Counted from the first letter of the stretch, positions 7,156 to 64,000 are shown. The stretch is 64,000 nt of DNA from Candidatus Omnitrophota bacterium (GCA_023227985.1 JALOCB010000005.1:5983-69982); one strand, 5' to 3'. Notes: generated by a model not told the origin, from the letters alone. Program-made: numbers and translations.

Positions 7156-9249
7156 ATGAGAAAAATCCATCTCGAGAAGATCAGAAACATCGGGGTCATC
7201 GCCCACATCGATGCCGGAAAAACCACGACATCGGAGCGCATCCTGTTTTATACCGGAAAGAATTATAAGATCGGCGAGGTGCATGACGGCGCCGCGACAA
7301 TGGATTGGATGGTCCAGGAGCAGGAAAGAGGAATTACGATCACTTCCGCCGCCACTACCTGCCATTGGAAGGATATTACCATTAACCTGATCGATACCCC
7401 CGGCCACGTGGATTTCACCGTGGAGGTGGAAAGGTCTCTTAAGGTTTTGGACGGCGCTGTGGTCGTTTTCTGTGCGGTAGGCGGGGTTCAACCGCAGTCT
7501 GAGACCGTGTGGCGCCAGGCGGACCGTTATAATGTCCCCCGGTTAGCTTTTGTGAACAAAATGGACCGGACTGCGGCGAATTTCGCCGAGGTCTTGAAAC
7601 AGATACGCGAGCGCCTGGGCGCCAACGCTGCCGCGGTGCAGCTTCCTTTAGGGGCAGAGGAGAATTTTCGCGGGGTCATCGACCTGATCGATAGTAAGAT
7701 GATGCTGTATACGGATGAGATGGGCAAAGAATTTGAAGTAACGGATATCCCCGCGGAGATGGCGGATGAGGTAAAACGTTATCATACTGATTTGCTTGAG
7801 CGGGTGGCCGAGGCTGACGACCTGATCATGGAAAAATACCTGGCGAATGAAGTCCCCGCGCCTGCTGATATCAAAGCGGCTATCCGCAGGGCCACGATCG
7901 CCAATAAATTCACCCCGGTTTTCTGCGGGTCGGCTTTTAAAAATAAGGGTGTTCAGTTCCTGCTTGACGGCGTGGTGGATTACCTGCCGTCGCCGCTCGA
8001 TGTCCCGTCGATTAAGGGGACAAACCCGGATACCGGCAGTTTTGAGGAGATTAAGGCTTCGGATAAAGCCCCGTTTTGCGCGCTTTGCTTTAAAGTGGCC
8101 ACAGACCCGTTCGTGGGCAAGATCTATTACATCCGGGTTTATTCCGGATCGATAACCAGCGGTAAATATATTTATAACGCCTCAAAACGGCTGCGCGAGC
8201 GTTTGACCAAACTGGTCCGGATGCATGCCAATCACCAGGAGATAATCGAGAGCGCCTTTACCGGCGACATTGTCGCCGCGGTTGGGCTTAAGGATACCAA
8301 GACCGGGGATACGCTTTGCGACGAGGGTATCCCGATACTGATCGAGGCGATGCGTTTTCCCGAGCCGGTTATACAGCAGGCTATAGAACCAAAAGCCAAG
8401 AATGAGCAGGAACGCCTGGGTATGGCATTGCACAAGATGCTCGATGAGGATCCTACGTTCCGCGTTACCTATAACAATGAGACCGGCCAGGTGATCATCT
8501 CCGGGATGGGCCAGTTGCATTTGGACGTCATCGTCGACCGTATTTTAAGGGAATTCAATGTGGCGGTGCAGGTGGGATTCCCGGAAGTCGCCTATCGCGA
8601 GACCATCCGCAAGAAGGTCAATGTGTCCGGTAAATTCATTCAGCAATCGGGCGGCCGCGGCCAATACGGCCATGTAGTTATCGAGGTGGAGCCGTTGGAA
8701 CCCCCGGAAAAAGGCGTTATTTTTGAGAATAAGATAAAAGGCGGGGCAATTCCGCAGGAATTCATCCCGGCGGTAAAACAAGGTGTTTTTGAGGCGGCAA
8801 AATCCGGCGTGCTGGCCAGGTATCCGGTCACGGATATAAAGGTTACCCTGGTCGACGGATCTTTTCACGACGTTGACTCGTCAGAAATGGCCTTTAAGAT
8901 GGCAGGGAGTATCGCCCTTTCCGACGCCCTCAGGAAGGCGCATTCGGTGCTTCTGGAGCCGATCATGGATATGGAGATCACCGTGCCGGAGGAATATATG
9001 GGCGCGGTAATCGGCGACCTGAGCTCTCGGCGCGCCAAGATCGGCTCGATCAATTCCCGGGCCAATGTCCGGGCGATCCGCACAGACATACCGCTGGCGG
9101 AGATATTCAATTACGCAACAGTTGTTCGTTCCATAACGCAGGGGCGCGGATCCTATACTATGGAGCCCTCATATTACGCGGAGGTGCCTTCACATATCGC
9201 GGAGAAGATTATCGCAGGTTTCGCATCAGCTGGGACAAAACGCACATAA
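7156..9249 (+). CDS. fusA: Elongation factor G
   Basis: 697 aa; [14 protein letters not shown]1 motif, [13 protein letters not shown]. Confidence 0.95.
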
Positions 9250-49793: not shown

Positions 49794-49821
49794 TTGATTA
49801 CGGGCTTCTTTATGATATAAT
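49794..49821 (+). promoter_or_regulatory. Candidate sigma70 promoter with extended -10 for the downstream accessory operon
   Basis: TTGATT (49794-49799), 16-nt spacer, TGaTATAAT (49813-49821); RBS GAGGGGGTG before ATG 49856. Confidence 0.45.
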
Positions 49822-49855: not shown

Positions 49856-50923
49856 ATGAGTGGCCGGATCAAATTTTTATCCGCTATTTTTGTTGTCGTG
49901 CTGGCCGTTTGTCCGAACGCGGCTTTCGCCGATACGCTCATCTTAACAGACGGGCAAAAGATAGAAGGAAAAATAATAAAAAAGGCCGACTCTTTCATCC
50001 GTATCGAGGAAAACGGCATACCGATCACATATTTTTCAGAAGAGATAAAAGAAATCATTGAATCCCCTCTGGCCCCCGCGGCCGCTGATATAAACCCGCC
50101 GGGCAATACGGCGGTAAACGCCAGTCCTTACCCTGATGCCAAAGCTGACGGCGATACAAGATCCATTCTCGCCGCCGAACCGCCCGCGAATCAAGCTGAT
50201 GCCCCGCGCATAGATTTGCGCGACCTTGATCGCGACAAACTAACCTCGACTATTAAGAATTTTTTCCTGCATCAGTATGATGCGGACCTAACGCAGTTTT
50301 TTACCAGCGTTACGGATGAATTCAGGGAAATTTTTTTGTTTAACCGGGCAAAACGCAATATCCGCCAAGCAAATGATATCCGGGAGGGTATGGAGGATTT
50401 TACGCTTGATGATATTGTCTTGAACGCCGATAACAATTCCATCACGGTCAGCGTTTCTTTTTTTCTGAGCGCTTCATATAAAACCGTCATATTAAAAAGG
50501 GAAGTTTCCGGATGGAAAATAAACAATATACAGCACGCCCAAGGCGAATCCTGGGTTGAAAATCCGGGAATTTCAAATATTCCCGATTACGATAAGATAA
50601 CCGAGGTTATTTGGAATTTTTTCCTGCATCAGAACGATGCGGATCTAACACAGTGTTTTACCAGCGTTACGGATGAATTCAGGAAGATCAGGCAGGCGCA
50701 TATGAAAAAGCGCCGGGTCGGAAACACTGAATCATTGTCCGTAAACAAAAAGAATTTCAGGATGTTTACCCTTGATCTGACCGGCAATACCGGCATGGCA
50801 AACGTTTCCTTCAATTCCGGACCATTGACCATGCGGGTTATAATGAAGCGGAAAGGGGATGACTGGAAAGTGAACGAGATAATAAACAGCACTGAAGGCG
50901 CCGCCCCAGCCAGGTCGTACTAA
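49856..50923 (+). CDS. Secreted protein with two tandem ~110-aa NTF2-like (DUF4878-like) repeat domains
   Basis: Signal peptide MSGRIKFLSAIFVVVLAVCPNAAFA. Two repeats share NFFLHQ[YN]DADLTQ[FC]FTSVTDEFR and a C-terminal …WK[IV]N[NE]I…. Confidence 0.55.
   Translation: MSGRIKFLSAIFVVVLAVCPNAAFADTLILTDGQKIEGKIIKKADSFIRIEENGIPITYFSEEIKEIIESPLAPAAADINPPGNTAVNASPYPDAKADGDTRSILAAEPPANQADAPRIDLRDLDRDKLTSTIKNFFLHQYDADLTQFFTSVTDEFREIFLFNRAKRNIRQANDIREGMEDFTLDDIVLNADNNSITVSVSFFLSASYKTVILKREVSGWKINNIQHAQGESWVENPGISNIPDYDKITEVIWNFFLHQNDADLTQCFTSVTDEFRKIRQAHMKKRRVGNTESLSVNKKNFRMFTLDLTGNTGMANVSFNSGPLTMRVIMKRKGDDWKVNEIINSTEGAAPARSY
50258..50683 (+). repeat. Direct repeat: two 69-nt copies (50258-50326 and 50615-50683), about 93% identical, inside the tandem-repeat gene
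   Basis: aattttttcctgcatcag…ttttaccagcgttacggatgaattcagg appears twice with 5 mismatches; flanking repeat sequence is much more diverged. Confidence 0.8.
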
Positions 50924-50943: not shown

Positions 50944-52002
50944 GTGCCATATACACCCTCTAAAAAACCTCGAACGAATATCGGTATTCGCCATCGCATG
51001 TCGAAAAAAAACACGCGTATAAGCCTGATCGCCATTTTGTTTTTTATAGCCGCGGAATTGCTGTTGCGGTTATTTGGCTGGGGCCCCGCGCCGCACGTAT
51101 ACGAGGAGATCCTTGACCCCGAGATCCAATGGCTCCATACCGCAGGTTTTAAAGGGCGCGTATGGGAAACAGATATCGAAATAAGCCCTCAAAGGATAAG
51201 GGACCGGATCTATTCAATCAATAAACCCAAATATACATTCCGGGTCATCGCAGTCGGTGAATGCACTGTTTTCGGCCGGGCGGTCGCTCTGGAAGAATCT
51301 TTCGTAAAACGATTAGAAGTATTGCTCAATGAACGCAAACCGTTCAAAAACATTAATGACTACGAAGTTATCAATGCGGGCTGCGGCCAATATAACGACC
51401 TCCAAAAAGAAGCCTTTCTCGAGAAATACTGGATGCGCTATAACCCTGACTTGATAATCTTCGGCCATGATCTGGGCTCCAAGGTATGGCTGGAAACCAG
51501 GCTTAAGCTGAGATGGTTCAGCTTGATTCGCGATCGAACGCCTAAACAACTGTATTCCGCGCGTTTTCTGGTATCTTTAATAGAACGTTTTATTATCGCG
51601 CCGGTGGCGCTGAAAATGTCGCACTATGACGAAAAAAATACCGTGCTGACCCGCTATACGGGCGAAGGGCTGCGCCATATTAAAACCGACCAAGCGTTAA
51701 AAAGGCTGTCCTTGTTAAGCCGAAAAACGGATGTCCCCGCCATAATCGTTTTTGTGCCCTGGTTAGGCGATTTATCCGAGGGCAGTTACCCCCATAAATG
51801 GGTGCATGAACTTTACAAAAAAAAGTGCGCGAAAAGCAACCTGGATGTATTGGATCTTTATGACGTCTATTTCAAGAACAAGCAATGCGATTTGTTCTGG
51901 GTCAGCGACGCAAACCGCCGGCCGAACGCGTTAGCGCACAAGATCATAGCCGAAGAGGTTTATCAGGAAATCGTGAAACGGGCTTCTTTGCCTAAAAAAT
52001 AA
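50944..52002 (+). CDS. Membrane-anchored SGNH/GDSL-hydrolase-like protein (AlgJ/DltD-like topology), non-canonical catalytic motifs
   Basis: N-terminal TM helix ISLIAILFFIAAELLLRLFGW. Block-I-like VIAVGECTVFG has GEC instead of GDS. C-terminal SDANRRPNALAH resembles block V. Real start may be ATG 50998. Confidence 0.4.
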   Translation: MPYTPSKKPRTNIGIRHRMSKKNTRISLIAILFFIAAELLLRLFGWGPAPHVYEEILDPEIQWLHTAGFKGRVWETDIEISPQRIRDRIYSINKPKYTFRVIAVGECTVFGRAVALEESFVKRLEVLLNERKPFKNINDYEVINAGCGQYNDLQKEAFLEKYWMRYNPDLIIFGHDLGSKVWLETRLKLRWFSLIRDRTPKQLYSARFLVSLIERFIIAPVALKMSHYDEKNTVLTRYTGEGLRHIKTDQALKRLSLLSRKTDVPAIIVFVPWLGDLSEGSYPHKWVHELYKKKCAKSNLDVLDLYDVYFKNKQCDLFWVSDANRRPNALAHKIIAEEVYQEIVKRASLPKK

Positions 52003-52019
52003 AAGGAACAGATATCACA

Positions 52020-53198
52020 GTGGACAAAAACCTTTGTTTAAAAATATTATTTATCGCTATATCCGCGGGCGCTTGTATGATCTCTTGCGCGTTCAGGCTG
52101 GGCGCCGATGATAATGCCCTGCCTATCCGGTTGGGTTATTTTCATGGCGGCCGGACAGTTTTATTGCTGCGCGCGTATGAAAATGCTGAATTCGATAAAA
52201 ACGGAATCCCGGTTGAGTTTTATTCAAAGAGGTTATATGAAAAAAACTATAAATTGATCCCAAAATCGATCCGGGAATTCAATCAGGGAGGGGGGAACAA
52301 AGCCGGCGCGGTTACCGGCACGGAATTCATGGAAGAGGTCATGAACAAGCAATTTGACCTGGCGGTAGTCGGGGAAAGTTCTTTTATCCGTTCAGTGTGC
52401 GAAGGGCAGCCGGTGGTCGCCATTGCCGAGCTGGGGCATGATGTGCGCGGGCATTCCGGGCATGTTTTCGCGATGAAAAAAGGCTTTAAAGCGGCGAGGC
52501 CTTCGGACTACCTGGGAAAGGTTTTGATCTCCAGGCGGGCCGGCGCCGCGGACGCTATGTTCTTGCGGGAATTCCTTAAAAAAGAAGGGCTCGACACAGA
52601 AAAACAGATATTGCAACTGGACGCCTTGCCCTCCACCCGGGAAGAAAAAAGAAAGCTTCCGAAGAATAAAGTGATAATTGTCGATAACCTGTTTGAAGAC
52701 AAAATGCAGGAAGGCATTGCCCGCGGCGTTATAGACGGCGGGTATTTTCACCTGATGGCTTATTCCAAAATAACCGGTTCATTTAAGATGATCCGGCCCT
52801 TGCATTATTGGGCTGATCCCGAACTTTCCCACGCCCTTTTAGTCTGCCGCAAAGAATTTCTGGAAAACAATAAGGAGCGCTTAACCGCATTTCTTGAGGT
52901 TTATATCAAACGGATACAATACGAGCACGGCCTCAGTTACGAAGATAGGACTAAAAAACAACCCAAGGGGCTGCAGATGGCGGTCAATCTTGACGGGCTT
53001 AATTATCCGCAGTATGATATCGTCCCGATCGTAAACCCCGGGTTGTTATACAGGGTTATGGGATTGTTGAGGAAATATAACTATATCGCCGATAAAAACG
53101 TAAAGATCGAGGATTTTATAGACAATAGCCTGGTATATAAGGCATTAGAGAACCTGGGGATCGGCGAAAAAGATGACCATTGGCAGTCGGAATATTAA
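52020..53198 (+). CDS. Periplasmic solute-binding protein, NitT/TauT (SsuA/NMT1/PhnD-like) superfamily; orphan, no permease or ATPase adjacent
   Basis: GTG start; signal peptide; …LGYFHGGRTVLLLRA… and overall type-2 periplasmic binding protein pattern. Confidence 0.5.
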   Translation: MDKNLCLKILFIAISAGACMISCAFRLGADDNALPIRLGYFHGGRTVLLLRAYENAEFDKNGIPVEFYSKRLYEKNYKLIPKSIREFNQGGGNKAGAVTGTEFMEEVMNKQFDLAVVGESSFIRSVCEGQPVVAIAELGHDVRGHSGHVFAMKKGFKAARPSDYLGKVLISRRAGAADAMFLREFLKKEGLDTEKQILQLDALPSTREEKRKLPKNKVIIVDNLFEDKMQEGIARGVIDGGYFHLMAYSKITGSFKMIRPLHYWADPELSHALLVCRKEFLENNKERLTAFLEVYIKRIQYEHGLSYEDRTKKQPKGLQMAVNLDGLNYPQYDIVPIVNPGLLYRVMGLLRKYNYIADKNVKIEDFIDNSLVYKALENLGIGEKDDHWQSEY

Positions 53199-54207
53199 AA
53201 GAACGGCGGTCCTGCTGGCTGTCCTGTTGATAAGCGGCAAATTCGCGTTTGCCGGGGTTCAGGGACAAGGCCGCAACACCGGCGATTTTACCAATATCAT
53301 CCTGGTAGGCTGGGACGGAACTAACCGGGATATTTTAACGGACTTCCTGCGCGCGGGTAAGCTGCCGAACCTGAAAGAGATAATGCGCGCGGGAGCAATG
53401 GTCAATACCGAGATCACCACGGGACGGACCGAGACTAAGCCGGGATGGGCGGAGATATTGACCGGATATAGCAGCAAGACTGTCGGGGTCCTGGCTAACC
53501 GGATTAACTATAAACCTATACCGGCGGGCTATACTGTTTTCGAAAGGTTGGAGGACGCGTTTGGGGATCGGGGGATCATAACAATATTCCTGGCCGGAAA
53601 AAGGCAGAATTTAGGAGCGCGCGGCCGGCATCGCGTATGGGTCACCGGTCCCAGAAAAGGATGGGACCGCGAAGAAGTCTGGGCAAAAGGCGATTTTTTG
53701 CCGGCCGAGGAAATGATATTATCATTCGAAGGAGAGCCATATTATACGGCTAAACCCCGTCTGGATGTTTATCAGAATGGATTGGGAAACGGCGAGGCAG
53801 TAGTTAAAAACACCCTTAAATACATCAAGAAATACGCGAAATCGCGTTTCTTTATGTTTACGCATTTTGAGGAGCCCGATGAACAGGGGCACGTTTTCGG
53901 GGGATATTCCGCGGAATATGGCCAAGCCTTGATCAAAGACGACATCTGGCTGGGGAGGATCATTGCTGCATTAAAGAAACTGGGGATTTACGAAAAAACA
54001 TTGATCTACGTTGTCACTGACCACGGTTTCGATATAAAAGGGGCCAAGCACCGCTATGAACCGCACACGTTCCTGATAACCAACGATCCCAAAGTGAAGC
54101 GAAATACCGGAGACAGGAAAGACCTTGCCCCGACGGTCCTATCCAGGTTCGGCCTGGACATTGATAAGATTGCCCCTTCTTTGGAAGGGGCTGATCTGAC
54201 CAGGTAG
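53173..54207 (+). CDS. Type I phosphodiesterase / nucleotide pyrophosphatase (NPP) family enzyme, secreted
   Basis: Signal peptide; IILVGWDGT (metal Asp), TETKPGWAEILTGY (Thr nucleophile region, compare TKTFPNHYTIVTGLYP), VVTDHGF. Confidence 0.65.
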   Translation: MTIGSRNIKRTAVLLAVLLISGKFAFAGVQGQGRNTGDFTNIILVGWDGTNRDILTDFLRAGKLPNLKEIMRAGAMVNTEITTGRTETKPGWAEILTGYSSKTVGVLANRINYKPIPAGYTVFERLEDAFGDRGIITIFLAGKRQNLGARGRHRVWVTGPRKGWDREEVWAKGDFLPAEEMILSFEGEPYYTAKPRLDVYQNGLGNGEAVVKNTLKYIKKYAKSRFFMFTHFEEPDEQGHVFGGYSAEYGQALIKDDIWLGRIIAALKKLGIYEKTLIYVVTDHGFDIKGAKHRYEPHTFLITNDPKVKRNTGDRKDLAPTVLSRFGLDIDKIAPSLEGADLTR

Positions 54208-54245: not shown

Positions 54246-55772
54246 ATGCTCATAACCAGGATAATATCAATCTTATTTCTCGCTGTGACTCTCGGGCAAG
54301 CCTGTAGTCAGGCCCAGCCTGATCCGGTTGCCTATGATTACGAGGATTTCAATCTAATCCTTATCGCCATCAATAATATCGGCGTCGAGCATATGAGTCT
54401 TTACGGATACAGCCGCCAGACCACCCCTAAACTGGATGCCTGGGCCAAGAATGCCCTGGTATTCGATGACGCGTATACCCCGGCATCCTGGACCCTGCCG
54501 GTGATGACTACCTTTTTTACTTCATTATACCCGTATACCCACGGGATCGCCAACCGTTCTTTTGATAATGCGCTGTCGCCCGAAACAGTCGTTTTGCCTG
54601 ATTTACTGCGAAGCTATGGATATGATACCGCCGCTTTTACCGGCGGCCTGGACAATAACAAGGTTTTCAGCCATATGAAAGGGTTCAACCATATCGCGGA
54701 TAATCCGGCGTATACGGGCTTTAAAATAACATTTAAACAAGCCTCTGACTGGCTCCGCAGGAATTCCGGGAAAAAGTTCTTTCTATTTATACAAGGTTAT
54801 GACGCGCACGCGCCTTTCAAGCCTCCGAAAAAGTTCAAGGGAGTATTCAGCGATACTGCCGGCAAGAAGATCACGATAAACCCGGATTTAACCTATCGCG
54901 GGTTTGAGGACCACGGCGGCCAATACTGGGCGCATTATTTCATCCCGGAAGAAGGCGCATATAACGGCCTGCGAAAAAGATGGAAGATAACGCCGCCGGT
55001 AAAAATAACCCGTGATGATATAGACCATCTGCGGGACCTTTATGATGAAGAAGTGCTATCTGTCGATTCGCAAACGGCAAGCTTCCTTGATTCTCTTGGT
55101 AAGGGTCTACTTAAAAATACAATAATCGTCGTTTTTTCCGAGCACGGGGAGATGTTCGCCAAGCATGGGAGGTTTGGGCGCGCAGGGACATTGCGCGGCG
55201 TGCTTTATGACGATGTGGTCCATGTGCCTTTGATGATAAAACTTCCCGGGCAAAAAGGCCGGAGGATAACCGGATTTGTCAATATGGCCGATATGATGCC
55301 GACAATCCTGGATTTATTGGGTATCCCCGCTATAAAGAATATCCAGGGGCTGTCCCTGATCCCGCTGATGAAGGATCAGACCCAGATAAATGATCATATC
55401 TATGCAGGCGCGTCGTATAACCTCACGAAGATACGCGAAAAAAAATTATATATGAACCCCAACGTCAATGAATCCATACGCAACGCCGATTGGAAGCTTA
55501 TACATGAGATAATTTATGAGCAGGAAAACCCGAAAATCCCCAGGTCCGAATGGCTCAATATCAAATCGGAGACATACGAGCTATATCATCTCGCGAGCGA
55601 CCCTGACGAACTTACGAATGTGCTCGATAAACATCCTCAAATGGCAACGGCGCTTTGCCAGAAACTAAAAAAGTGGTCTGAGGATTGCAGGAGTTTCAGT
55701 AACCACGCCGCGGTAACCTCAAAAATACCGGATGGCATATTAGAGGATGCCCGTGAAAACGGCTATTGGTAA
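54246..55772 (+). CDS. Secreted alkaline-phosphatase-superfamily 'sulfatase-fold' protein, Thr-type, paralog 1
   Basis: 508 aa; LILIAINNIG, TPASWTLP (Thr at the formylglycine position, no C-x-P-x-R), GYDAHAPF, FSEHGEMF. Confidence 0.7.
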   Translation: MLITRIISILFLAVTLGQACSQAQPDPVAYDYEDFNLILIAINNIGVEHMSLYGYSRQTTPKLDAWAKNALVFDDAYTPASWTLPVMTTFFTSLYPYTHGIANRSFDNALSPETVVLPDLLRSYGYDTAAFTGGLDNNKVFSHMKGFNHIADNPAYTGFKITFKQASDWLRRNSGKKFFLFIQGYDAHAPFKPPKKFKGVFSDTAGKKITINPDLTYRGFEDHGGQYWAHYFIPEEGAYNGLRKRWKITPPVKITRDDIDHLRDLYDEEVLSVDSQTASFLDSLGKGLLKNTIIVVFSEHGEMFAKHGRFGRAGTLRGVLYDDVVHVPLMIKLPGQKGRRITGFVNMADMMPTILDLLGIPAIKNIQGLSLIPLMKDQTQINDHIYAGASYNLTKIREKKLYMNPNVNESIRNADWKLIHEIIYEQENPKIPRSEWLNIKSETYELYHLASDPDELTNVLDKHPQMATALCQKLKKWSEDCRSFSNHAAVTSKIPDGILEDARENGYW

Positions 55773-55797: not shown

Positions 55798-57339
55798 ATG
55801 TTTATACTACGCATATTTCTGGTTTTGGTTATTGCGATCTTGTCGGGCGAGCGCCGTGTTTACGCTCAGCAGGACCAGGATAACCTATCATATAAGGGCT
55901 TCAACGTAATTCTGATCGCCATCAACAATATCGGCGCGGAACATATGAGCCTCTACGGATACCGCCGTGACACCAACCCTAAATTCAAAGTATGGGCAAA
56001 GGACGCGTTGATATTTGAAAACGCGTATTCCCCGGCATCCTGGACCCTGCCGGTAATAACAACTGTTTTTACGGCATTGAACCCGTATACACATAAGGTT
56101 ATGGATAGATACTTCGAAAATACACTTTCCACCGATATTAAGACGCTGCCGCAGGTCCTGGCTTATAACGGCTATGCCACCGCCGCTTTTACCGGAGGCC
56201 TTGATGATAATCGCATCTTTGGACATATGCGCGGTTTTTCGCAGACCGACGCAAACCCGTCTTTTACGGGTTTTGCGGTGACTTTAAAACAGGCGCGCAA
56301 ATGGCTTGCCCGTAACTCAAAAAATAAGTTTTTTCTGTTCGTCCACGGTTATGACGCTCATCCGCCGTTCACCCCGCCCCGGAAATTCCGAGGCGTCTTC
56401 AGCGACACAAAAGGCAAGGATATAACCATAAAACCAGGCTTTACCTATCGCGGCTTCCGGAAATTCGACGGCCGGTATCAGGCCTATTGCATAACCAGGG
56501 AGGATCCGCTGCATCCCAATATGGAACACGCTCAGGTTGATCCCGGGGACATATTCCCCCGTATCGTATTGACCCAGGACGACGTGGATTATTTGACCGA
56601 CCTGCATGATGAGACCATTTTGTCAGTCGATTCGCAAGTAACCAAATTCCTGGGCTCACTTGATAAAAACCTGCTGAAGAAAACGATCATCGTTGTTTTT
56701 TCTGAACATGGCGAAATGTTCGCTAAACACGGCAGATTCGGGCGCGTAGGCACAATACGCGGAACGCTTTACGATGACGTGGTCCACATACCGTTATTGG
56801 TCAAAATCCCCGGGCTAAAAAACCGCAGGATAACCGGGCTGGTCCAACTCGCGGATATTATGCCCACAATACTGGATTTACTGGACATCCCGTTCCTGCG
56901 CCGGTTGCAGGGAAGGTCTCTGGTGCCGTTGATAAAGCACGACCTGGCCGTTAATGATTATGTTTATTCGGGCGCGGCATATAACTTCGCCGGAGGGCCG
57001 AAAAGGCCGTTCTCAAGCTATCCCAGTATCAATGAGTCGATCCGTAACCAGGATTGGAAGCTAATACACGAAATATTCTTTTCGGCGGATACCAAGGGAA
57101 AATTCAGCGATAATACGTCACTAAAGGTACAAGAAGAATCATTTGAGCTGTATGACCTTAACGCCGATCCAAACGAACTAAATAATGTGCGTAGCGCGTA
57201 TCCGGAAAAAACGAAAGAATTAACCGCCCTATTGGCCGAATGGTCCCAGGCATGCCGGGTTTCCGGCCAGTTCAATGCGTCTACCCAAAGGATCCCCGAC
57301 AAGATGATCAAAGACGCCAGAGAGCACGGTTATTGGTAG
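55798..57339 (+). CDS. Secreted alkaline-phosphatase-superfamily 'sulfatase-fold' protein, Thr-type, paralog 2
   Basis: 513 aa; about 65-70% identical to paralog 1 over the N-terminal core (VILIAINNIGAEHMSLYGY…SPASWTLP…FSEHGEMF). Confidence 0.7.
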   Translation: MFILRIFLVLVIAILSGERRVYAQQDQDNLSYKGFNVILIAINNIGAEHMSLYGYRRDTNPKFKVWAKDALIFENAYSPASWTLPVITTVFTALNPYTHKVMDRYFENTLSTDIKTLPQVLAYNGYATAAFTGGLDDNRIFGHMRGFSQTDANPSFTGFAVTLKQARKWLARNSKNKFFLFVHGYDAHPPFTPPRKFRGVFSDTKGKDITIKPGFTYRGFRKFDGRYQAYCITREDPLHPNMEHAQVDPGDIFPRIVLTQDDVDYLTDLHDETILSVDSQVTKFLGSLDKNLLKKTIIVVFSEHGEMFAKHGRFGRVGTIRGTLYDDVVHIPLLVKIPGLKNRRITGLVQLADIMPTILDLLDIPFLRRLQGRSLVPLIKHDLAVNDYVYSGAAYNFAGGPKRPFSSYPSINESIRNQDWKLIHEIFFSADTKGKFSDNTSLKVQEESFELYDLNADPNELNNVRSAYPEKTKELTALLAEWSQACRVSGQFNASTQRIPDKMIKDAREHGYW

Positions 57340-57421: not shown

Positions 57422-58801
57422 ATGATGGATATACTTCAAAAAATAAAGGAAGAGTCAATAAAACCGCAAAAGACCGATCCCAATAAACCCCGCTTCGCCC
57501 TTATTGTACCGCCGTCTTGTTTTACCGTGCCCGAGGGATGGGAATTTGTTTTGAAGCAGCCCTTTGAAGGGGTTTCGTATATAGCTACCGTGCTGTTCAA
57601 TGCCGGTTTTCCGGTCCGGATCATTGACGCGCGTTTTCAGGATGATCCGGTAAAATTCGCGGTCGATTCGGTCAAAGACGCGGCAGTGGTCGGTATGGCT
57701 ACGTATGAGGATTCTTTCCCCTTTGTCCATGAAGCATGCGCGAAGATCAAACAAAAATACCCGGAGAAATTGATCGTTTTAGGCGGCGCTTTGGTGACTT
57801 CCACTCCGCAGGTACTTATAAAAAATACCGCCGCTGATATCGGCGTGCTCGGCGAAGGCGAAGAGACTACCCGGGAGCTCCTGGATGCCATCGCCGAAGG
57901 CAAACCGGAGGATTTTGAAAAGATCGCCGGATTATGCTATAAGGACAATTCCGGCGGCATTCATTTTACCGAAAAACGCCCGCAGATGGCCGACCTGGAA
58001 TCACTGCCGTTAATGAACCTCTCTTTATGGCCGGCGGTGCAGAAAGACAAAAAGGTCAAGGAGATATTCTTCTCCCATAGCCGCGGATGTTACAAGAATT
58101 GTTCATTCTGTTTCCGGACCACCCCGCAGCTCAGCCAAAAGTCGATCGGGAAATTCCAGGATGAGCTCAGGGAACTGAAAAAACAATATGATTTCGAATT
58201 CATTTATTTCGTGGACCTGACTTTCGCCATCCAGAAACAACGGACACTTGAGATATGCGAAGTTTTAAAAGAGTTCAAAGTCAGTTGGTCGTGCATGTCC
58301 AGGGTCCAGAATATAGACGAAGAAATGCTAAAGGCGATGAAAGCCGCCGGCTGTCAGATAATCCTCTACGGCTTCGAATCACTGGACCAAAATATCCTGG
58401 ATAACGCTCATAAAGGCATCACCCCTGCGCAGATACGCAGGATGGTAAAATTAACCCAGGACAACGGGATACAGGTAGGAGGACTGTTCATTGTGGGCCT
58501 GCCCCAGGAAACCAAAGAATCCCTGAGAAAAGTCGTTGATTTTATCGATGAGACCGGGAGCGCGTGCCGGGTGAAATATTTATCCGCTATCCCGGGCACT
58601 GAAATTTACCGTTGGGCGCTCGCAACCGGGATAATCAAAGATGAGGTAAGCCATTTGCGCTGGCTGGCAAATGAAAGATGCGATAAAGACGACGAATTTA
58701 TAAATTTCACGCGGCTGCCGGATGAAGTCATACGCGACACCTATATGGAAATAAATTCAAAATATATCAAAGGCCCGCGCTACACTAATGAATGGTTTTA
58801 A
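57422..58801 (+). CDS. B12-binding-domain radical SAM enzyme (class B), paralog 1
   Basis: 459 aa; N-terminal cobalamin-binding Rossmann-like domain; SRGCYKNCSFCF = CX3CX2C. Confidence 0.8.
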   Translation: MMDILQKIKEESIKPQKTDPNKPRFALIVPPSCFTVPEGWEFVLKQPFEGVSYIATVLFNAGFPVRIIDARFQDDPVKFAVDSVKDAAVVGMATYEDSFPFVHEACAKIKQKYPEKLIVLGGALVTSTPQVLIKNTAADIGVLGEGEETTRELLDAIAEGKPEDFEKIAGLCYKDNSGGIHFTEKRPQMADLESLPLMNLSLWPAVQKDKKVKEIFFSHSRGCYKNCSFCFRTTPQLSQKSIGKFQDELRELKKQYDFEFIYFVDLTFAIQKQRTLEICEVLKEFKVSWSCMSRVQNIDEEMLKAMKAAGCQIILYGFESLDQNILDNAHKGITPAQIRRMVKLTQDNGIQVGGLFIVGLPQETKESLRKVVDFIDETGSACRVKYLSAIPGTEIYRWALATGIIKDEVSHLRWLANERCDKDDEFINFTRLPDEVIRDTYMEINSKYIKGPRYTNEWF

Positions 58802-58828
58802 GGCCATCACCGGGAAGGAGTCTTTGCT

Positions 58829-60253
58829 TTGAAGAAAACCAGCCTTTCAGCCGTTGAAGAATCGATTAAAGGCGCATCGTCTTCGCCATTGACTGCCGAT
58901 CCTAAAAAACCGCGGTTCATAATCATTGTCCCGCCTTCGCCGCAAATACCCACACCGGGGCGGGAATTCCTGCTGCGCACGCCCATTGAAGGCGTTACCT
59001 TTATCGCCACTGTGGCCAAGAACGCCGGTTTCGGCGTTGAGATCGTGGATTACCGCACCACGCCGGTCCCGCCTGAAGAATTGATCGCGAAAAGCGGCGA
59101 TCACGCTATTTTTGCGCTAACCACCTTTATCGACGGTTATGTTTTTATGGAAGATTTTATCCGCAGGGTAAAAAAAATTGATCCCGGCAACATCGTCATA
59201 TTGGGAGGCCCGTTTGTTTCCTCTACCCCGGAATTACTGATGCGCGCTTTGCCGGCGGATTTCGCGGTACTGGGGGAAGGGGAATTGACGATCCTGGAGC
59301 TTCTGGCCGCTCTATCCGGCAAAACGCCGGAAAAAATACCGCTGATCGACGGGTTAGCCTATCGGGAAAATGGAAAGATCAAATTTACCAGGCCCCGGGC
59401 GCAGATAAATGACCTGGATATCCTGCCGGCGCTGGATTTTTCTCTCTGGCCGACTGTCGCCAAAGACAGGTTGATCGAAAAGATCGGGATATCGTCAAGC
59501 CGCGGGTGTTACGCGCGCTGTTCTTTCTGTTTTAAGGCCATACCCGAAGTCCGCCAAATGACCCCGGAGAAATTCGGACAGGATATGGCCGCGTATGTGC
59601 GCAAATATGGGATAAAATACGCCTATATCAACGACCTTACCTTTGTCATCGGCAGGACGCGGACAGTAAAATTATGCGAGGAACTTAGGAAAACCGGGGT
59701 GCGCTGGGCTTGTTCCACCAGGGTGGAGAATATCGACGACGACCTGTTGAGGCTGATGAAGGACTGCGGCTGCGATGAAATATGGTACGGGATAGAATCG
59801 GTCGACCAAAAAGTACTTAACGCCAATTTCAAGAATATAACCGTGGAAAAGATCGAGCGGGCTGTGGAGATGACCAATAAGGCCGGGATCAAGGTCATGG
59901 CTAACTTTATTGTAGGACTGCTGGGAGAAACCGAGGAGTCTCTCGACCAGATGGTAAGGTTTATCGAGACCCAGGATATCATCCCATGCAGCATTAAATA
60001 TCTGACCCCGTTCCCCGGGACCCCGGTTTATCAATACGCGCTTGAAAAGAAGCTTATCGTCGATGAAATAGAGTATTTCCGCGTTTTAGGCCAGCGTAAA
60101 GTCAATTGTGCCGAGGATACGATCGTTAATTGCACCAGCCTGGCCGAATCTAAGCTCAGAGAAGCATTTATGCGGATCCGACGCATCTCTTATGACCGTT
60201 ACGGACCTCTGGATTGGGATAATGGATCACAAACAACTAAAAAAACAGTTTAA
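58829..60253 (+). CDS. B12-binding-domain radical SAM enzyme (class B), paralog 2
   Basis: 474 aa; TTG start after GGGAAGGAG; SRGCYARCSFCF; about 45% identical to paralog 1. Confidence 0.8.
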   Translation: MKKTSLSAVEESIKGASSSPLTADPKKPRFIIIVPPSPQIPTPGREFLLRTPIEGVTFIATVAKNAGFGVEIVDYRTTPVPPEELIAKSGDHAIFALTTFIDGYVFMEDFIRRVKKIDPGNIVILGGPFVSSTPELLMRALPADFAVLGEGELTILELLAALSGKTPEKIPLIDGLAYRENGKIKFTRPRAQINDLDILPALDFSLWPTVAKDRLIEKIGISSSRGCYARCSFCFKAIPEVRQMTPEKFGQDMAAYVRKYGIKYAYINDLTFVIGRTRTVKLCEELRKTGVRWACSTRVENIDDDLLRLMKDCGCDEIWYGIESVDQKVLNANFKNITVEKIERAVEMTNKAGIKVMANFIVGLLGETEESLDQMVRFIETQDIIPCSIKYLTPFPGTPVYQYALEKKLIVDEIEYFRVLGQRKVNCAEDTIVNCTSLAESKLREAFMRIRRISYDRYGPLDWDNGSQTTKKTV

Positions 60254-60962
60254 GAACCGGGCGAGGACATTCGACAGATCCGCGAGATGGGTCAAAGACC
60301 CGGGGCTTTTGGATATCCACCGCAAACTTGCCAAGATACTTCCCGGCGAAACCGTTCTTGAGGCATGCTGCGGTACGGGGATCGTTGGTGCGGACCTATG
60401 CAAAAGCGGCAACACGGCCATCGGTCTGGATCTGAGCCTGGATATGCTGGGATTTGCCGGTAAACGCCTGGATCATTGCGTCAACGCACAAACCGAGCAT
60501 CTGCCTTTCGCCGATAATACGTTTGACGTCGCGGCCTGCCGCCAGGCAATGCATTTTCTGGATATGAAACGTTTTTTCTTTGAATTATTCCGGGTCGTAA
60601 AACCAGGCACAGGCAGGGTAATAATAAGCCAGATCGTCCCGTTCGGAGAAAAGGATAAGGCCTGGGTGCGCAGGATCCATCAAAAAAAACAGAATATGCT
60701 GCGCAATTTCGTCTGCGAGCAGGATATCCTGGACGGCTTGAAAAGGGCCGGGTTTAAAAAAATCGAGCGCCGCGAATATACCATTGAAGAGCCGATAAAC
60801 CCGTGGCTGACCGACACATTTTTCCCGCCTAAAAAGATCGAAGAATTAAAGGGAATGTTTATCAACGCGCCTGCGCAATACAAGGAATTACACCGCGTCC
60901 GCTGCGTAAGAGGCGCGATCTACGAAACGATGCGCTGGATAATAGCTTTAGGGAGGAAATAA
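60222..60962 (+). CDS. Class I SAM-dependent methyltransferase
   Basis: ATG 60222 (MDHKQLKK…), overlapping the radical-SAM gene end; motif I VLEACCGTGIVG, then GLDLS, FADNTFDVAA, LFRVVKPGTGRVI. Confidence 0.65.
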   Translation: MDHKQLKKQFKNRARTFDRSARWVKDPGLLDIHRKLAKILPGETVLEACCGTGIVGADLCKSGNTAIGLDLSLDMLGFAGKRLDHCVNAQTEHLPFADNTFDVAACRQAMHFLDMKRFFFELFRVVKPGTGRVIISQIVPFGEKDKAWVRRIHQKKQNMLRNFVCEQDILDGLKRAGFKKIERREYTIEEPINPWLTDTFFPPKKIEELKGMFINAPAQYKELHRVRCVRGAIYETMRWIIALGRK

Positions 60963-60965
60963 AAG

Positions 60966-62366
60966 ATGCCCCGCGCCGGTTCATTTCTGATCTTGCTGGG
61001 AATAATATGTTTTTCCGCTAACGCGCACGCCGGGGATACCGCCGCCGTAATAAAGAGCGGGCAGTTCAAGGGGTATAATGTTCTGCTCGTTTCTTTTGAC
61101 GCGCTGCAGGCCGGGCATGTCGGATGCCTTGGCTATAGCCGCAATACCACCCCGACCATAGATTCATTCGCCGGGGAAGGTTTTCTGTTCAAGAACGCCG
61201 TTTCCCAGGCTTCCTGGACCGTGCCGGCGACGATGAGCTACTTTACCTCGCTTTATCCGTCGCAACACCGTTGCGTAAACAAATATTCCGTATACACCGA
61301 TAATGAAAAAATATTGACCAGCCTGAAAGACCTCTCCCCGGAAACCGTAACCCTGGCCGAGGTGTTAAAAAACAACGGCTACGCGACCGGGGGATTTACC
61401 GGCGATGCCGGGGTAAGCGGGCATTTCGGCTTCGGCCAGGGATTTGATACTTATTTCGACGGTCCTAAATTCGGAGGAATGGATACCAGTATCCCTGAAG
61501 CCCTTAAATGGCTGAGATCCAACCACAATAGAAAATTCTTTATTTTTCTGCACGGCTACGATTGCCACGGCCAATATGACCCGCCCAACGGCTTTACCCG
61601 GCGCTACCTTGATTTTAATTATACCGGACCGTTAAAAGGCGGCAAAGAAGAGCAGGGAAGGCTGCGCGAAGACAGCCTGAATAAGAACGCCATAAGCCTG
61701 ACCGAGCAGGACGCCGGATTCTGGAGGTCGTTGTATGACGAAAAAATAAACGACGTCGATGAACGGTTCCGCCAGTTCATCGAAGCCCTGCGCAAAATGG
61801 GCGTTTTAGACAAAACCGTTATAATACTTGTTTCCGACCATGGCACGGAATTCTATGAGCATAAAAGGTTTGACCACGGGCATTCTCTTTACGATGAACT
61901 TATACGCGTGCCGCTTATCTTCCGGCTTCCGGGGATAAAAAAGAACGCCGTTATTCCCGACCAGGTGCGCGGCATCGATATAATGCCTACGGTTCTGGAC
62001 CTGATCGGGATTAAAATTACCGGAAAAGTAAAAAACCAGGCCAAAGGCGTGAGCCTGAGGCCGCTGATGAACGGAGAGAAGCTGAAGCTGGACGCCTACA
62101 GCGAAACGGATTACCGGTTTTATACCAGCAAGCGCTCGATCCGCACAGCCGACGGCTGGAAATTAATTTACACTATGGAAACCGGAAAAAAAGAACTTTA
62201 TAACCTGCAAACCGACCCCGCTGAAACGGTCAACCGTGTTGCTGACGAACAGAAAACCGCGTACGAGCTGGAACAAAAACTTTTTGCCTGGATGCGATCC
62301 ATGGGGCAGGGGGAGAATTACCACGAAGACCTGTTAAGAAGCGTGCTGCGGATCAAAGAATATTGA
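60966..62366 (+). CDS. Secreted alkaline-phosphatase-superfamily 'sulfatase-fold' protein, Thr-type, paralog 3
   Basis: 466 aa; VSFDAL, SQASWTVP, GYDCHGQY, VSDHGTEF. Confidence 0.7.
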   Translation: MPRAGSFLILLGIICFSANAHAGDTAAVIKSGQFKGYNVLLVSFDALQAGHVGCLGYSRNTTPTIDSFAGEGFLFKNAVSQASWTVPATMSYFTSLYPSQHRCVNKYSVYTDNEKILTSLKDLSPETVTLAEVLKNNGYATGGFTGDAGVSGHFGFGQGFDTYFDGPKFGGMDTSIPEALKWLRSNHNRKFFIFLHGYDCHGQYDPPNGFTRRYLDFNYTGPLKGGKEEQGRLREDSLNKNAISLTEQDAGFWRSLYDEKINDVDERFRQFIEALRKMGVLDKTVIILVSDHGTEFYEHKRFDHGHSLYDELIRVPLIFRLPGIKKNAVIPDQVRGIDIMPTVLDLIGIKITGKVKNQAKGVSLRPLMNGEKLKLDAYSETDYRFYTSKRSIRTADGWKLIYTMETGKKELYNLQTDPAETVNRVADEQKTAYELEQKLFAWMRSMGQGENYHEDLLRSVLRIKEY

Positions 62367-62374
62367 CGCCCTAA

Positions 62375-63748
62375 ATGCCTGATTGCAGGAAGATATTATC
62401 ACTTTTTTTGCTTTCATCCCTGATCCCCGTATTGCCGCTTTACGCGCAATCCCCGGTTGATCCCGCTTCCGGTTATAACCTGATATTCATCTGCCTGGAT
62501 ACCCTGCGCCCCGACCACCTGGGATGTTACGGCTACGGACGCAATACCAGCCCGCGTATCGACGCGATATCCGGCCAGGGGGTATTGTTCAAGAATGCCT
62601 TCGCCCAGTCTAACTTTACCCTGGCCAGCCACGCTTCTTTGTTCACCTCAAAATACGCTCATAGCCATAACGCCGACCGGATCGAGCGCCGGCTCGCGGA
62701 TGAAGAAATAACCATAGCGGAGGTACTTAAAGCCAACGGCTATAAAACCGCGGCTTTTATACACAATGCGCAGCAATTCGACCCGAAATTCGGGCTTAAC
62801 CAGGGTTTTGAGACATATGATTTCGCGGTAGAAGCCAACCGGCGTCCTTCGATAGAAAAAACGCTCCCTGCCTGCCTAAAATGGATAACCCGCCATAAAA
62901 ACGAGAGATTTTTCGTTTTTCTGCATGCCAATGATATACACGAACCATATCATTGCCCGGATGAGGATTATTTCGACGAAGGATATCACGGCCGGCTGGA
63001 TCAGGAGTATATGGCAACCTGGCCGCCGGGATTCCACACGCGCAATCTCAAACGGACCAAACAAGAGGCCCGGCATATAATCGCACACTATGACGCGGGG
63101 ATCAGATACACGGACTCCTACGTTGGTAAATTCTTCGATCATTTAAAGGGGGCCGGGTTGCTGAATAAAACAATACTGGTGTTCTTTTCCGACCACGGCG
63201 AAATACTGGGTGAAAGAAAAAAGTTTTTCGGGCATGGATTAAGCCTGCATGACGAAGAAGTGCGCGCGGCTTTGTTGTTTTGCCTGCCTCAGGCAAAACA
63301 ACAAACAGTCGAGGAACAGGCACAGTTGGTCGATATAATGCCTACTGTGCTGGAATTGCTGCGGATAGATACCAAAGGGCTCGGGCTTGAAGGGAAAAGC
63401 CTGGTTAAAACATTTTTGCCGGGCAGCGCCATCGACGAAGAAATAAATGAATATGTTTATGCGGGATGCCTGAGCGGCGAAAGCGAGGACAACGGCCTGA
63501 CCGATACCCAGGCGATGATCCGCAGCCGCTCATGGAAACTTATTACACATACATGGGGATTCCCGGCGGATCATAAAAATATCAAAAGCGTGCAGATGCA
63601 TAACGGCGCGATCATAACCGCTCCTTTCAGGAACAGGATCGAACTGTATGACCTTAGAAAAGACCCCCGGGAAATAAACAACCTGGCCGGCCGGGGATAC
63701 GCCGATATCGAAAACATGTTATTGTCAAAACTGCTGGAATTATTTTAA
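62375..63748 (+). CDS. Secreted alkaline-phosphatase-superfamily 'sulfatase-fold' protein, paralog 4
   Basis: 457 aa; ICLDTL, AQSNFTLAS, ANDIHEPY, FSDHGEILG. Confidence 0.7.
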   Translation: MPDCRKILSLFLLSSLIPVLPLYAQSPVDPASGYNLIFICLDTLRPDHLGCYGYGRNTSPRIDAISGQGVLFKNAFAQSNFTLASHASLFTSKYAHSHNADRIERRLADEEITIAEVLKANGYKTAAFIHNAQQFDPKFGLNQGFETYDFAVEANRRPSIEKTLPACLKWITRHKNERFFVFLHANDIHEPYHCPDEDYFDEGYHGRLDQEYMATWPPGFHTRNLKRTKQEARHIIAHYDAGIRYTDSYVGKFFDHLKGAGLLNKTILVFFSDHGEILGERKKFFGHGLSLHDEEVRAALLFCLPQAKQQTVEEQAQLVDIMPTVLELLRIDTKGLGLEGKSLVKTFLPGSAIDEEINEYVYAGCLSGESEDNGLTDTQAMIRSRSWKLITHTWGFPADHKNIKSVQMHNGAIITAPFRNRIELYDLRKDPREINNLAGRGYADIENMLLSKLLELF

Positions 63749-63750
63749 CA

Positions 63751-64000
63751 ATGAGAATAAAGCTTATATTCTTTTGTGCCCTTACTATCGCCGGACCGTT
63801 TATCGCCTCGCGGGCTTACCCTGCCGGCCCGAAATATAACATAGTTATTATCGTCGTCAACGCGCTAAGGACCGATTATATGGGCTGTTACGGGTCCCGG
63901 CAGGGGAATACCCCGAATATTGATTCCCTTGCCGCTGAAGGCGCGTTATTCGATAACGCAATAAGCCAGTCATATTGGACGCTGCCCAGCATGGTATCTT
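63751..64000 (+). CDS. Secreted alkaline-phosphatase-superfamily 'sulfatase-fold' protein, paralog 5 (N-terminal fragment; continues beyond window)
   Basis: ATG 63751: MRIKLIFFCALTIAGPFIASRA…NIVIIVVNALRTDYMGCYG…TPNIDSLAAEGALFDNAISQSYWTLPSMVS. Confidence 0.6.
   Translation, partial: MRIKLIFFCALTIAGPFIASRAYPAGPKYNIVIIVVNALRTDYMGCYGSRQGNTPNIDSLAAEGALFDNAISQSYWTLPSMVS

Follow-up and report, generated by a model that had tools for sequence, protein, structure and literature searches.

Tandem AcmJ/NucJ-type radical SAM enzymes beside Thr-type sulfatase-family genes in an uncultivated Omnitrophota bacterium

The stretch of DNA analyzed here (referred to below as the window) comprises 64,000 nucleotides from a Candidatus Omnitrophota bacterium (GCA_023227985.1 JALOCB010000005.1:5983-69982) and carries two adjacent open reading frames (ORFs) for radical S-adenosylmethionine (SAM) enzymes, both intact. 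The first, rSAM-A (57422-58801, + strand), has an ATG start and encodes a 459 aa AcmJ/NucJ-type protein with a B12-binding domain and a radical SAM core. The second, rSAM-B (58829-60253, + strand), has a TTG start and encodes another B12-binding/radical SAM enzyme, from a separate and older paralogue clade; its 474 aa length is the same as that of the gene called at the syntenic locus L001. The two proteins are 41% identical over 441 residues (E-value: 8e-123). Both exceed the Pfam gathering cutoffs for PF02310 (B12-binding; 57.8 bits for rSAM-A and 57.5 bits for rSAM-B, cutoff 32.1) and PF04055 (Radical_SAM; 71.9 and 74.8 bits, respectively, cutoff 29.5), and neither has a Pfam match to SPASM. 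Each contains a single CX3CX2C motif, CYKNCSFC at residue 223 of rSAM-A (C223/C227/C230) and CYARCSFC at residue 227 of rSAM-B (C227/C231/C234), and the three cysteines are invariant in an alignment of 15 homologues. Few cysteines follow this motif, so that no cysteine-rich tail or auxiliary-cluster motif was found C-terminal of it in either protein. The N-terminal strings KPRF.IIVPPS, IATV..NAGF and LGG are present, and several of these positions are invariant among the 15 family members. An earlier reading made from the nucleotide sequence without database searches (the sequence-only reading) had proposed a tandem paralogous pair of class B (cobalamin) radical SAM enzymes without a SPASM extension, and had named the cobalamin-binding motif as the feature on which this assignment turned. 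The strings and clusters that it quoted occur in both ORFs, PF02310 is above its cutoff in both proteins, and the class, the lack of SPASM and the paralogous pairing are all borne out by sequence, profile and predicted fold.

The AlphaFold2 model of rSAM-A, built with the 15 homologues, has a predicted local distance difference test (pLDDT) score of 86.6 and a predicted template modelling (pTM) score of 0.88. In this model, residues 25-158 are predicted to form five parallel beta-alpha units. The top Foldseek matches among solved structures are TsrM, MgmA (the second-best match), OxsB, AprD4, CysS and TokK, with template modelling (TM) scores of 0.64-0.69, and a profile search of PDB sequences returned the same class B set. 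These enzymes have the fold and the cluster motif in common with the window proteins at 17-20% identity. The DxHxxG motif of His-on cobalamin binding was not found in rSAM-A or rSAM-B, which is consistent with His-off binding; class B enzymes are expected to lack this motif. The description of rSAM-A and rSAM-B as a tandem pair of class B paralogues that lack SPASM is thus correct.

None of the curated class B families in NCBIfam accommodates the pair, as all score at most 187 bits against rSAM-A and rSAM-B. The equivalogs tried and rejected were HpnJ (187 bits, cutoff 578), BchE (153 bits, cutoff 481), PhpK (125 bits, E-value: 2e-36, cutoff 600) and BzaD (92-102 bits, cutoff 450), while ApyD, ladderane, MCR glutamine methylase, AprD4, HpnR and others fell far below their cutoffs. 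The substrates of HpnJ, BchE and PhpK, and those of the solved class B enzymes, have no counterpart at the window locus. A much closer relative was identified by an exact-sequence look-up of one homologue (P0151), which is AJF34509.1 of Streptomyces sp. JCM 9888, the 557 aa protein AcmJ; the contig of this entry has the acm layout D-E-F-G-H-I-J-K-L-M-N-O-P-Q, matching Table 1 of PMC4257720. rSAM-A is 44% identical to AcmJ over 451 aa (E-value: 1e-143) and rSAM-B is 40% identical over 458 aa (E-value: 8e-107), whereas both are only 22-25% identical to AcmH, the other class B enzyme of the ascamycin cluster.

The genes acmG to acmQ lie in the ascamycin cluster, in which acmJ is listed as encoding a 557 aa "putative Fe-S oxidoreductase" (PMC4257720), and its counterpart NucJ is annotated in the literature as a radical SAM/Fe-S enzyme. 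In a nucleocidin producer, knockouts of nucG, I, J, K, L, N, O, P and Q each abolished sulfamylation while fluorination was kept (Wojnowska et al., PMC10946740). Their products are listed there as two sulfotransferases (NucK and NucO), a methyltransferase (NucL), an amidinotransferase (NucN), a pseudo-rubrerythrin (NucQ) and, for NucP, a "gyrase with C-terminal methyltransferase domain" (PMC10946740). AcmJ/NucJ proteins (from the nucleocidin clusters of S. calvus and S. virens and the ascamycin cluster of JCM 9888) consist of B12-binding and radical SAM domains without SPASM, the same architecture as in the window. Based on these sequence comparisons, rSAM-A and rSAM-B belong to the AcmJ/NucJ family, which is genetically tied to assembly of the rare sulfamoyl (S-N) group carried by the antibiotics nucleocidin and ascamycin. 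The window is also like the acm/nuc clusters in that homologues of AcmL or the AcmP methyltransferase domain and of AcmG/AcmI stand alongside the radical SAM genes; it is unlike them in having a pair of these enzymes, no nucleoside-tailoring genes and an uncultivated Omnitrophota host.

A scan of one genome per species returned 562 relatives of these enzymes, of which the best 80 were kept; these 80 include many from Streptomyces, Micromonospora, Actinomadura, Sorangium, Myxococcota and Azospirillum. Close homologues (38-90% identity) are found in Omnitrophota, Elusimicrobia, Planctomycetota and Bacteriovorax. ORFs were called and clustered in 88 loci, which span Actinomycetota, Myxococcota, Pseudomonadota, Elusimicrobiota, Omnitrophota, Planctomycetota, Bdellovibrionota and other phyla. 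The cassette that recurs around the radical SAM gene consists of a class I methyltransferase (57/88 loci), a sulfatase-family protein with Thr at the formylglycine position ("Thr-type", 52/88), a small rubrerythrin-like protein (Rbr, 49/88), a fusion of a GHKL (GyrB-like) ATPase with a methyltransferase (GHKL-MT, 48/88), a Sulfotransfer_3-like protein of approximately 450 aa (ST3, 45/88), an ADI/amidinotransferase-like protein (45/88) and a Sulfotransfer_1 protein (ST1, 43/88). Genes for CysD/CysNC, which synthesize 3'-phosphoadenosine 5'-phosphosulfate (PAPS), lie within or beside the operon at L003, L009, L010, L017 and L085. L003, a relative of 62% identity, also carries at 8063-9220 a radical SAM/SPASM gene resembling those of anaerobic sulfatase-maturating enzymes (anSMEs), with ferredoxin-type motifs; it adjoins the CysD/CysN-like genes, between the sulfatase-family genes and a block in which A and B are flanked by two methyltransferase genes.

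In Bacteriovorax (P0088, L004 6166-8559), an AcmJ-type radical SAM enzyme and an AcmL-type class I methyltransferase (187 vs 122 bits) form one natural fusion protein. Its gene is flanked by two sulfotransferase genes and by genes for the ADI, rubrerythrin-like and GHKL-MT proteins, whereas the sulfatase family is not represented nearby. At L089, L090 and L091, where the radical SAM enzymes are 56-64% and 47% identical to rSAM-A, the genes of an ABC importer (permease, ATPase and NMT1/SsuA-like binding protein) end 3-10 nt upstream of rSAM-A. These binding proteins also match the Phosphonate-bd profile, and the same loci encode DUF2490 or Porin_O_P, 650 aa Phosphodiest, sulfatase-family and GDSL-TPR proteins. 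The position of the importer directly upstream of rSAM-A favours a small molecule as the substrate, and the window resembles this importer context. L089 has A without B. The gene 3' of the methyltransferase encodes a nitroreductase-family protein at L090 (13589-14293) and a 460 aa protein with no Pfam match at L089 (12259-13641); either of these may be an alternative partner of rSAM-A.

A neighbour-joining tree was built from 112 members of the family (distance-based, midpoint-rooted and without support values). In it, rSAM-A groups with the first copies of two-copy loci, as sister to the single-copy AcmJ-type clade of approximately 555 aa. rSAM-B falls in a distinct, deeper clade, the members of which are all second copies and come from 18 pair loci, and B was found only beside an A-type copy. 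The B clade includes Omnitrophota, Elusimicrobia, Planctomycetales, Thermodesulfobacteriota, Desulfuromonadaceae, Geobacterales, Nitrospiraceae and a Bacteroidetes metagenome-assembled genome, lineages that, judged from their names, are mostly anaerobic. AcmH-type enzymes form a long-branch outgroup clade in the same tree and are unrelated to the rSAM-B paralogue; AcmH itself (L088 7009-8370) is a very distant extra class B radical SAM enzyme, further examples lie at L043, L048, L050, L059 and L061 (at approximately 18.5-20.9 kb), and the type is frequent in Streptomyces cassettes.

Taken from the tree, the divergence of A and B is ancient and the pair is non-redundant. The sequence-only reading had treated the two genes as a duplicated pair suggesting two sequential methylation or rearrangement steps. 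Its paralogy holds and the search for similar pairs that it called for was productive, as A and B recur together in 18 loci with conserved neighbours. A simple duplication does not fit, given the ancient split and the greater similarity of rSAM-A to AcmJ (44%) than to rSAM-B (41%). Two sequential methylations are one option; the best partial profile matches, HpnJ and BchE, are non-methylating, and both are below their cutoffs. The closest precedent for two sequential steps is the anaerobic benzimidazole lower-ligand pathway, in which a class I methyltransferase is encoded with two paralogous class B radical SAM enzymes that work one after the other (BzaC-BzaD-BzaE), but the window contains no bzaA/B or cobT genes and the gene context is entirely different.

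Loci with and without B differ sharply in two other cassette genes. Rbr is present at 0/18 B loci and at 49/70 others, and GHKL-MT at 0/18 and 48/70 (Fisher p ~3e-8, a value that ignores phylogeny). At five pair loci (L007, L076, L078, L082 and L084) homologues of K, O and N are present, while Q and the GHKL domain never are. Because B is never found with Rbr or GHKL-MT, it is suggested that B belongs to an anaerobic replacement module. The simplest reading, by analogy with other pairs of oxygen-dependent and radical SAM enzymes, which offer a parallel for such an alternation, is that B and a stand-alone methyltransferase would replace the function of NucQ and NucP in these mostly anaerobic lineages.

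In the window, the radical SAM genes are part of a co-directional, tightly packed cluster that extends from approximately 49856 to beyond the window end. The packing around them is operon-like, with successive gaps of 82, 27, -32, 3, 8 and 2 nt. A precursor peptide of the kind used for ribosomally synthesized and post-translationally modified peptides (RiPPs) was considered and rejected because these intergenic gaps (2-82 nt) leave no room for a gene encoding one. The 3' end of rSAM-B is overlapped by 32 nt by a gene for a 246 aa class I SAM-dependent methyltransferase (60222-60962, + strand; Methyltransf_11/25/23), the start of which was set by synteny with L002. This protein is 31% identical to the C-terminal methyltransferase domain of AcmP and 28% identical to AcmL. 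Assignment to either class was rejected as ambiguous (146 bits for the AcmL class vs 157 bits for the AcmP class); the protein belongs to a third class of cassette methyltransferases and is itself marginally nearer to the AcmP domain. At pair loci with two methyltransferases, one is clearly of the AcmL type and the other is of this third class.

Five sulfatase-family genes of the Thr-type surround the radical SAM and methyltransferase genes, all on the + strand and all encoding proteins with a hydrophobic, signal-like N-terminus. Two lie upstream, at 54246-55772 (SWTLPV; PF00884, E-value: 8e-44; 25% identity to AcmI, with an N-terminal hydrophobic segment) and 55798-57339 (SWTLPV; PF00884, E-value: 1.6e-36; similar to AcmI and AcmG). 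Three lie downstream, at 60966-62366 (SWTVPA; PF00884, E-value: 7e-44; 28% identity to AcmI, E-value: 1e-26), 62375-63748 (NFTLAS; PF00884, E-value: 2e-45; 28% identity to AcmI) and 63751-64000 (YWTLPSM). The last is the 5' part of a gene cut by the window end and was recognized from its translation and by comparison with the third downstream sulfatase gene of L001. The product of 60966-62366 includes the peptide SWTVPATMSYFTSLYPSQHR. Overall, the window proteins are 25-28% identical to AcmI and 22-27% identical to AcmG. The sulfatase-like partners are exported at the window and cytoplasmic in Streptomyces, where AcmG and AcmI begin at the metal-binding motif.

Of the 83 sulfatase-family proteins linked to the cassette, nearly all have threonine at the formylglycine position, among them every window protein and both the AcmG and the AcmI type. 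This Thr lies within a conserved x-T-x-P-x-x...T-G frame in which the Arg of CxPxR is not conserved. In the 60966-62366 protein, the best PDB relatives of which are true S1 sulfatases, Thr aligns to the formylglycine position. As Thr replaces Cys/Ser, these proteins cannot use formylglycine chemistry. Other members of the alkaline phosphatase superfamily use a Thr alkoxide, and by analogy the Thr-type proteins probably do the same. Among the 46 loci with at least 8 kb on each side of the radical SAM gene (the full-flank set), 30 have a Thr-type gene near it, with a median gap of 161 bp.

Four further genes, all on the + strand, form the upstream part of the cluster. The first (49856-50923) encodes an exported protein of no recognized family and no Pfam match, which has an internal self-match, the motif WNFFLHQ.DADLTQ.FTSVTDEFR occurring twice; in L001 it corresponds (52% identity) to separate genes of 344 aa and 225 aa. 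The second (50944-52002) encodes a membrane-anchored, degenerate SGNH/GDSL-like protein, also with no Pfam match, that is 26% identical to a GDSL-like neighbour at the pair locus L007 (E-value: 2e-10). Its block I reads GECTVFG, with Cys in place of the catalytic Ser, and block V has Arg in place of His. Proteins of the GDSL or GDSL-TPR kind are also encoded by the radical SAM pair at L003, L007 and L091. The third (52020-53198) encodes an NMT1/THI5-like periplasmic substrate-binding protein (PF09084, E-value: 1.4e-7), of which L001 has two copies. The fourth (53173-54207) encodes an exported, 344 aa Phosphodiest/NPP-like protein of the alkaline phosphatase superfamily (PF01663, E-value: 2e-22); it is kept in L001 at 63% identity, and larger Phosphodiest proteins recur at related loci.

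The directly observed features are the domain architecture of the pair, its relationship to AcmJ, the early divergence of A from B, the conservation of the neighbouring genes and the absence of NucQ/NucP genes wherever B occurs. They lead us to propose with moderate confidence that rSAM-A and rSAM-B are two functionally distinct AcmJ/NucJ-type enzymes of an anaerobic organosulfur module, in which B stands in place of NucQ/NucP. According to this proposal, A, B and the overlapping methyltransferase would form the cytoplasmic radical and methyl module of the cassette conserved across phyla, the full form of which Streptomyces needs for installing the sulfamoyl group of nucleocidin and ascamycin. 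Each enzyme would bind a [4Fe-4S] cluster through its CX3CX2C motif and cleave SAM reductively to give a 5'-deoxyadenosyl radical, and cobalamin in the N-terminal Rossmann domain would serve as methyl carrier or redox partner in the modification of an unactivated position. As substrate we envisage a small molecule bearing a sulfur oxyanion (of the sulfate-ester, N-sulfo or sulfamate type), and the methyltransferase may act on the same intermediate as the radical SAM enzymes, natural fusions of the two being known. The sequence-only reading had held that the substrate cannot be deduced; this now appears too pessimistic, as the AcmJ/NucJ family membership and the neighbouring genes point to sulfur-oxyanion chemistry.

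The step carried out in aerobes by the rubrerythrin-like NucQ and the GHKL-methyltransferase NucP would be performed by B and the stand-alone methyltransferase without oxygen. Outside the cytoplasm, the five Thr-type proteins, the NPP-like enzyme and the NMT1-type binding protein would handle the ester or anion (by release, uptake or transfer). The sulfotransferase and amidinotransferase steps are not encoded in the window, and the pathway would be coupled to exported Thr-type enzymes and an uptake component and not to PAPS-dependent sulfotransferases.

Several observations weigh against this proposal. The literature searched, to mid-2026, reports no reaction for NucJ/AcmJ and no biochemistry for the proteins of sulfamoyl assembly, and the role of NucJ in Streptomyces is known only from its knockout phenotype. 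AcmJ is approximately 90 residues longer at its C-terminus than the window proteins. We infer cobalamin binding by, and cobalamin dependence of, rSAM-A and rSAM-B from profile and model, and an Rfam scan of the window found no family and no cobalamin riboswitch. AprD4, a close structural match, is a caution against assuming cobalamin dependence. The exclusivity statistic is uncorrected for phylogeny, and the use of O2 by the rubrerythrin-like protein is only putative.

Also unfavourable is the gene content. When representatives of the cassette proteins were compared by tblastn with the whole 64 kb window, no sulfotransferase, amidinotransferase, rubrerythrin or GHKL homologue was found, nor were CysD/NC, the 650 aa phosphodiesterase or ABC components; the methyltransferase was the only one detected. 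(Matches to "CysN" in the window are EF-Tu and EF-G.) The first four were likewise not found within 10 kb on either side at L001 and L002. As these cassette genes are missing at the window and at both related loci, the pathway here may differ from sulfamate formation. Finally, the radical SAM enzymes are cytoplasmic and the sulfatase-like proteins are exported, so that they cannot share one molecule in one compartment.

In the main rival explanation, A, B and the methyltransferase would be maturases that modify the neighbouring Thr-type proteins in the cytoplasm before Sec export, by analogy with AtsB and the anSMEs, creating a new catalytic residue (e.g. keto or methylated) at or near the Thr. 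In AtsB/anSME systems the gene for a cytoplasmic radical SAM enzyme neighbours those of exported sulfatases, with a gene order akin to that of sulfate-ester utilization loci, and the window, with five exported sulfatase paralogues, a binding protein and cytoplasmic radical SAM enzymes, is much like such an ats-type locus. The proximity of Thr-type genes to the radical SAM gene in the full-flank set, and the conserved frame around a Thr at the formylglycine position in nearly all 83 proteins, are in keeping with an enzyme-substrate relationship, as is the single phenotype of nucJ, nucG and nucI knockouts (PMC10946740). Protein-modifying class B enzymes exist, the second-best structural match, MgmA, being relevant here, and under maturation the lack of sulfotransferase and amidinotransferase genes in the window would be accounted for, as neither activity would be required.

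However, anSMEs have SPASM, two auxiliary clusters, no B12 domain and (C/S)xPxR substrates; at the window there is no SPASM or auxiliary cluster, and the candidate substrates have Thr and no conserved Arg. The T-x-P-x-H signature is shared with NPP-type enzymes, whose Thr acts unmodified, and no modification of Thr-type proteins has ever been reported. About a third of the full-flank loci, including the fusion locus L004, have no sulfatase-family gene nearby, and rSAM-A is operonic with an ABC importer at L089-L091. We therefore regard maturation of the Thr-type proteins at this locus as unlikely, and the broader claim that AcmJ/NucJ-type radical SAM enzymes with their methyltransferases are in general a new group of sulfatase-family maturases acting on the Thr region, and not small-molecule enzymes, as slightly less likely still.

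Both remaining explanations are less likely than maturation. One is that the locus serves phosphorus scavenging or phosphonate metabolism, with the radical SAM enzymes being PhpK-like P-methyltransferases or C-P-processing enzymes and the Thr-type proteins phosphodiesterases or phosphatases. PhpK is among the best partial profile matches (E-value: 2e-36), a Thr nucleophile is found in NPP/LtaS/EptA-type enzymes (and weak Phosphodiest, EptA and LtaS matches were obtained), and related loci contain Phosphodiest, Porin_O_P and binding proteins matching the Phosphonate-bd profile. Nevertheless, the PhpK score of 125 bits compares with a 600-bit cutoff, no pepM or phn genes were found in the window, and the best solved relatives of the Thr-type proteins are true sulfatases. 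Moreover, the same radical SAM family occurs at most loci in PAPS-linked operons (with sulfotransferases and CysD/CysNC) and is tied in Streptomyces to a sulfur group, and we consider a phosphorus-related role improbable. Less credible still is the explanation that A and B are generic class B methyltransferases or cyclases (of the HpnJ, BchE, BzaD/E or RiPP-methylating kinds) lying beside sulfatases by chance: HpnJ (187 bits) and BchE (153 bits) are the top NCBIfam matches, JGI annotates homologues as "anaerobic Mg-protoporphyrin IX monomethyl ester cyclase" and BzaC-BzaD-BzaE is a precedent for a methyltransferase with two class B paralogues, but all equivalog scores fall short of their curated cutoffs by a factor of 3-8, there are no hopanoid, chlorophyll, cobamide or precursor-peptide genes nearby, and the conservation of the neighbourhood across phyla in 88 loci shows that it is not due to chance.

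Returning to the organosulfur proposal, the window locus is a paired, reduced and probably oxygen-independent version of a genetically known family. Its wider interest lies in how the S-N bond of sulfamate natural products is made: the nucleocidin producer needs nine cluster genes for this, and no reaction has been assigned to any of them. The core of radical SAM enzyme, methyltransferase and Thr-type sulfatase-like protein is far more widespread than antibiotic clusters, reaching uncultivated anaerobic phyla, and it can occur without sulfotransferase and amidinotransferase genes. That Rbr and GHKL-MT never occur together with the second radical SAM paralogue is typical of cases in which one step has an oxygen-dependent and an oxygen-independent solution. 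Taken together with the lack of formylglycine chemistry in the associated sulfatase-like proteins, these points suggest that organosulfur metabolism of a sulfamate-like or related kind may be widespread among environmental bacteria. If maturation were instead correct, it would involve an unprecedented catalytic residue and would explain both the loss of sulfamoylation shared by nucJ, nucG and nucI mutants and a locus made up of only radical SAM enzymes, a methyltransferase and five exported Thr-type proteins.

Scans of the window for promoters and terminators gave counts that were not above shuffled expectation. A promoter-like site, recognized by consensus match only, lies at 49794-49821, before the first gene of the cluster. 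The preceding 49.8 kb consist of housekeeping genes, including rpoB/rpoC, ribosomal protein operons, secY, adk, map and rpoA, as well as groEL, dnaG, rpoD and UvrD/AddAB-like helicase-nuclease genes. The encoded SecY shows 100% identity to a protein assigned by NCBI to a Candidatus Omnitrophota metagenome-assembled genome, which gives the taxonomic placement of the window. Within this region, positions 1-26000 hold a complete rpoBC, str, S10, spc and alpha ribosomal-protein supercluster.

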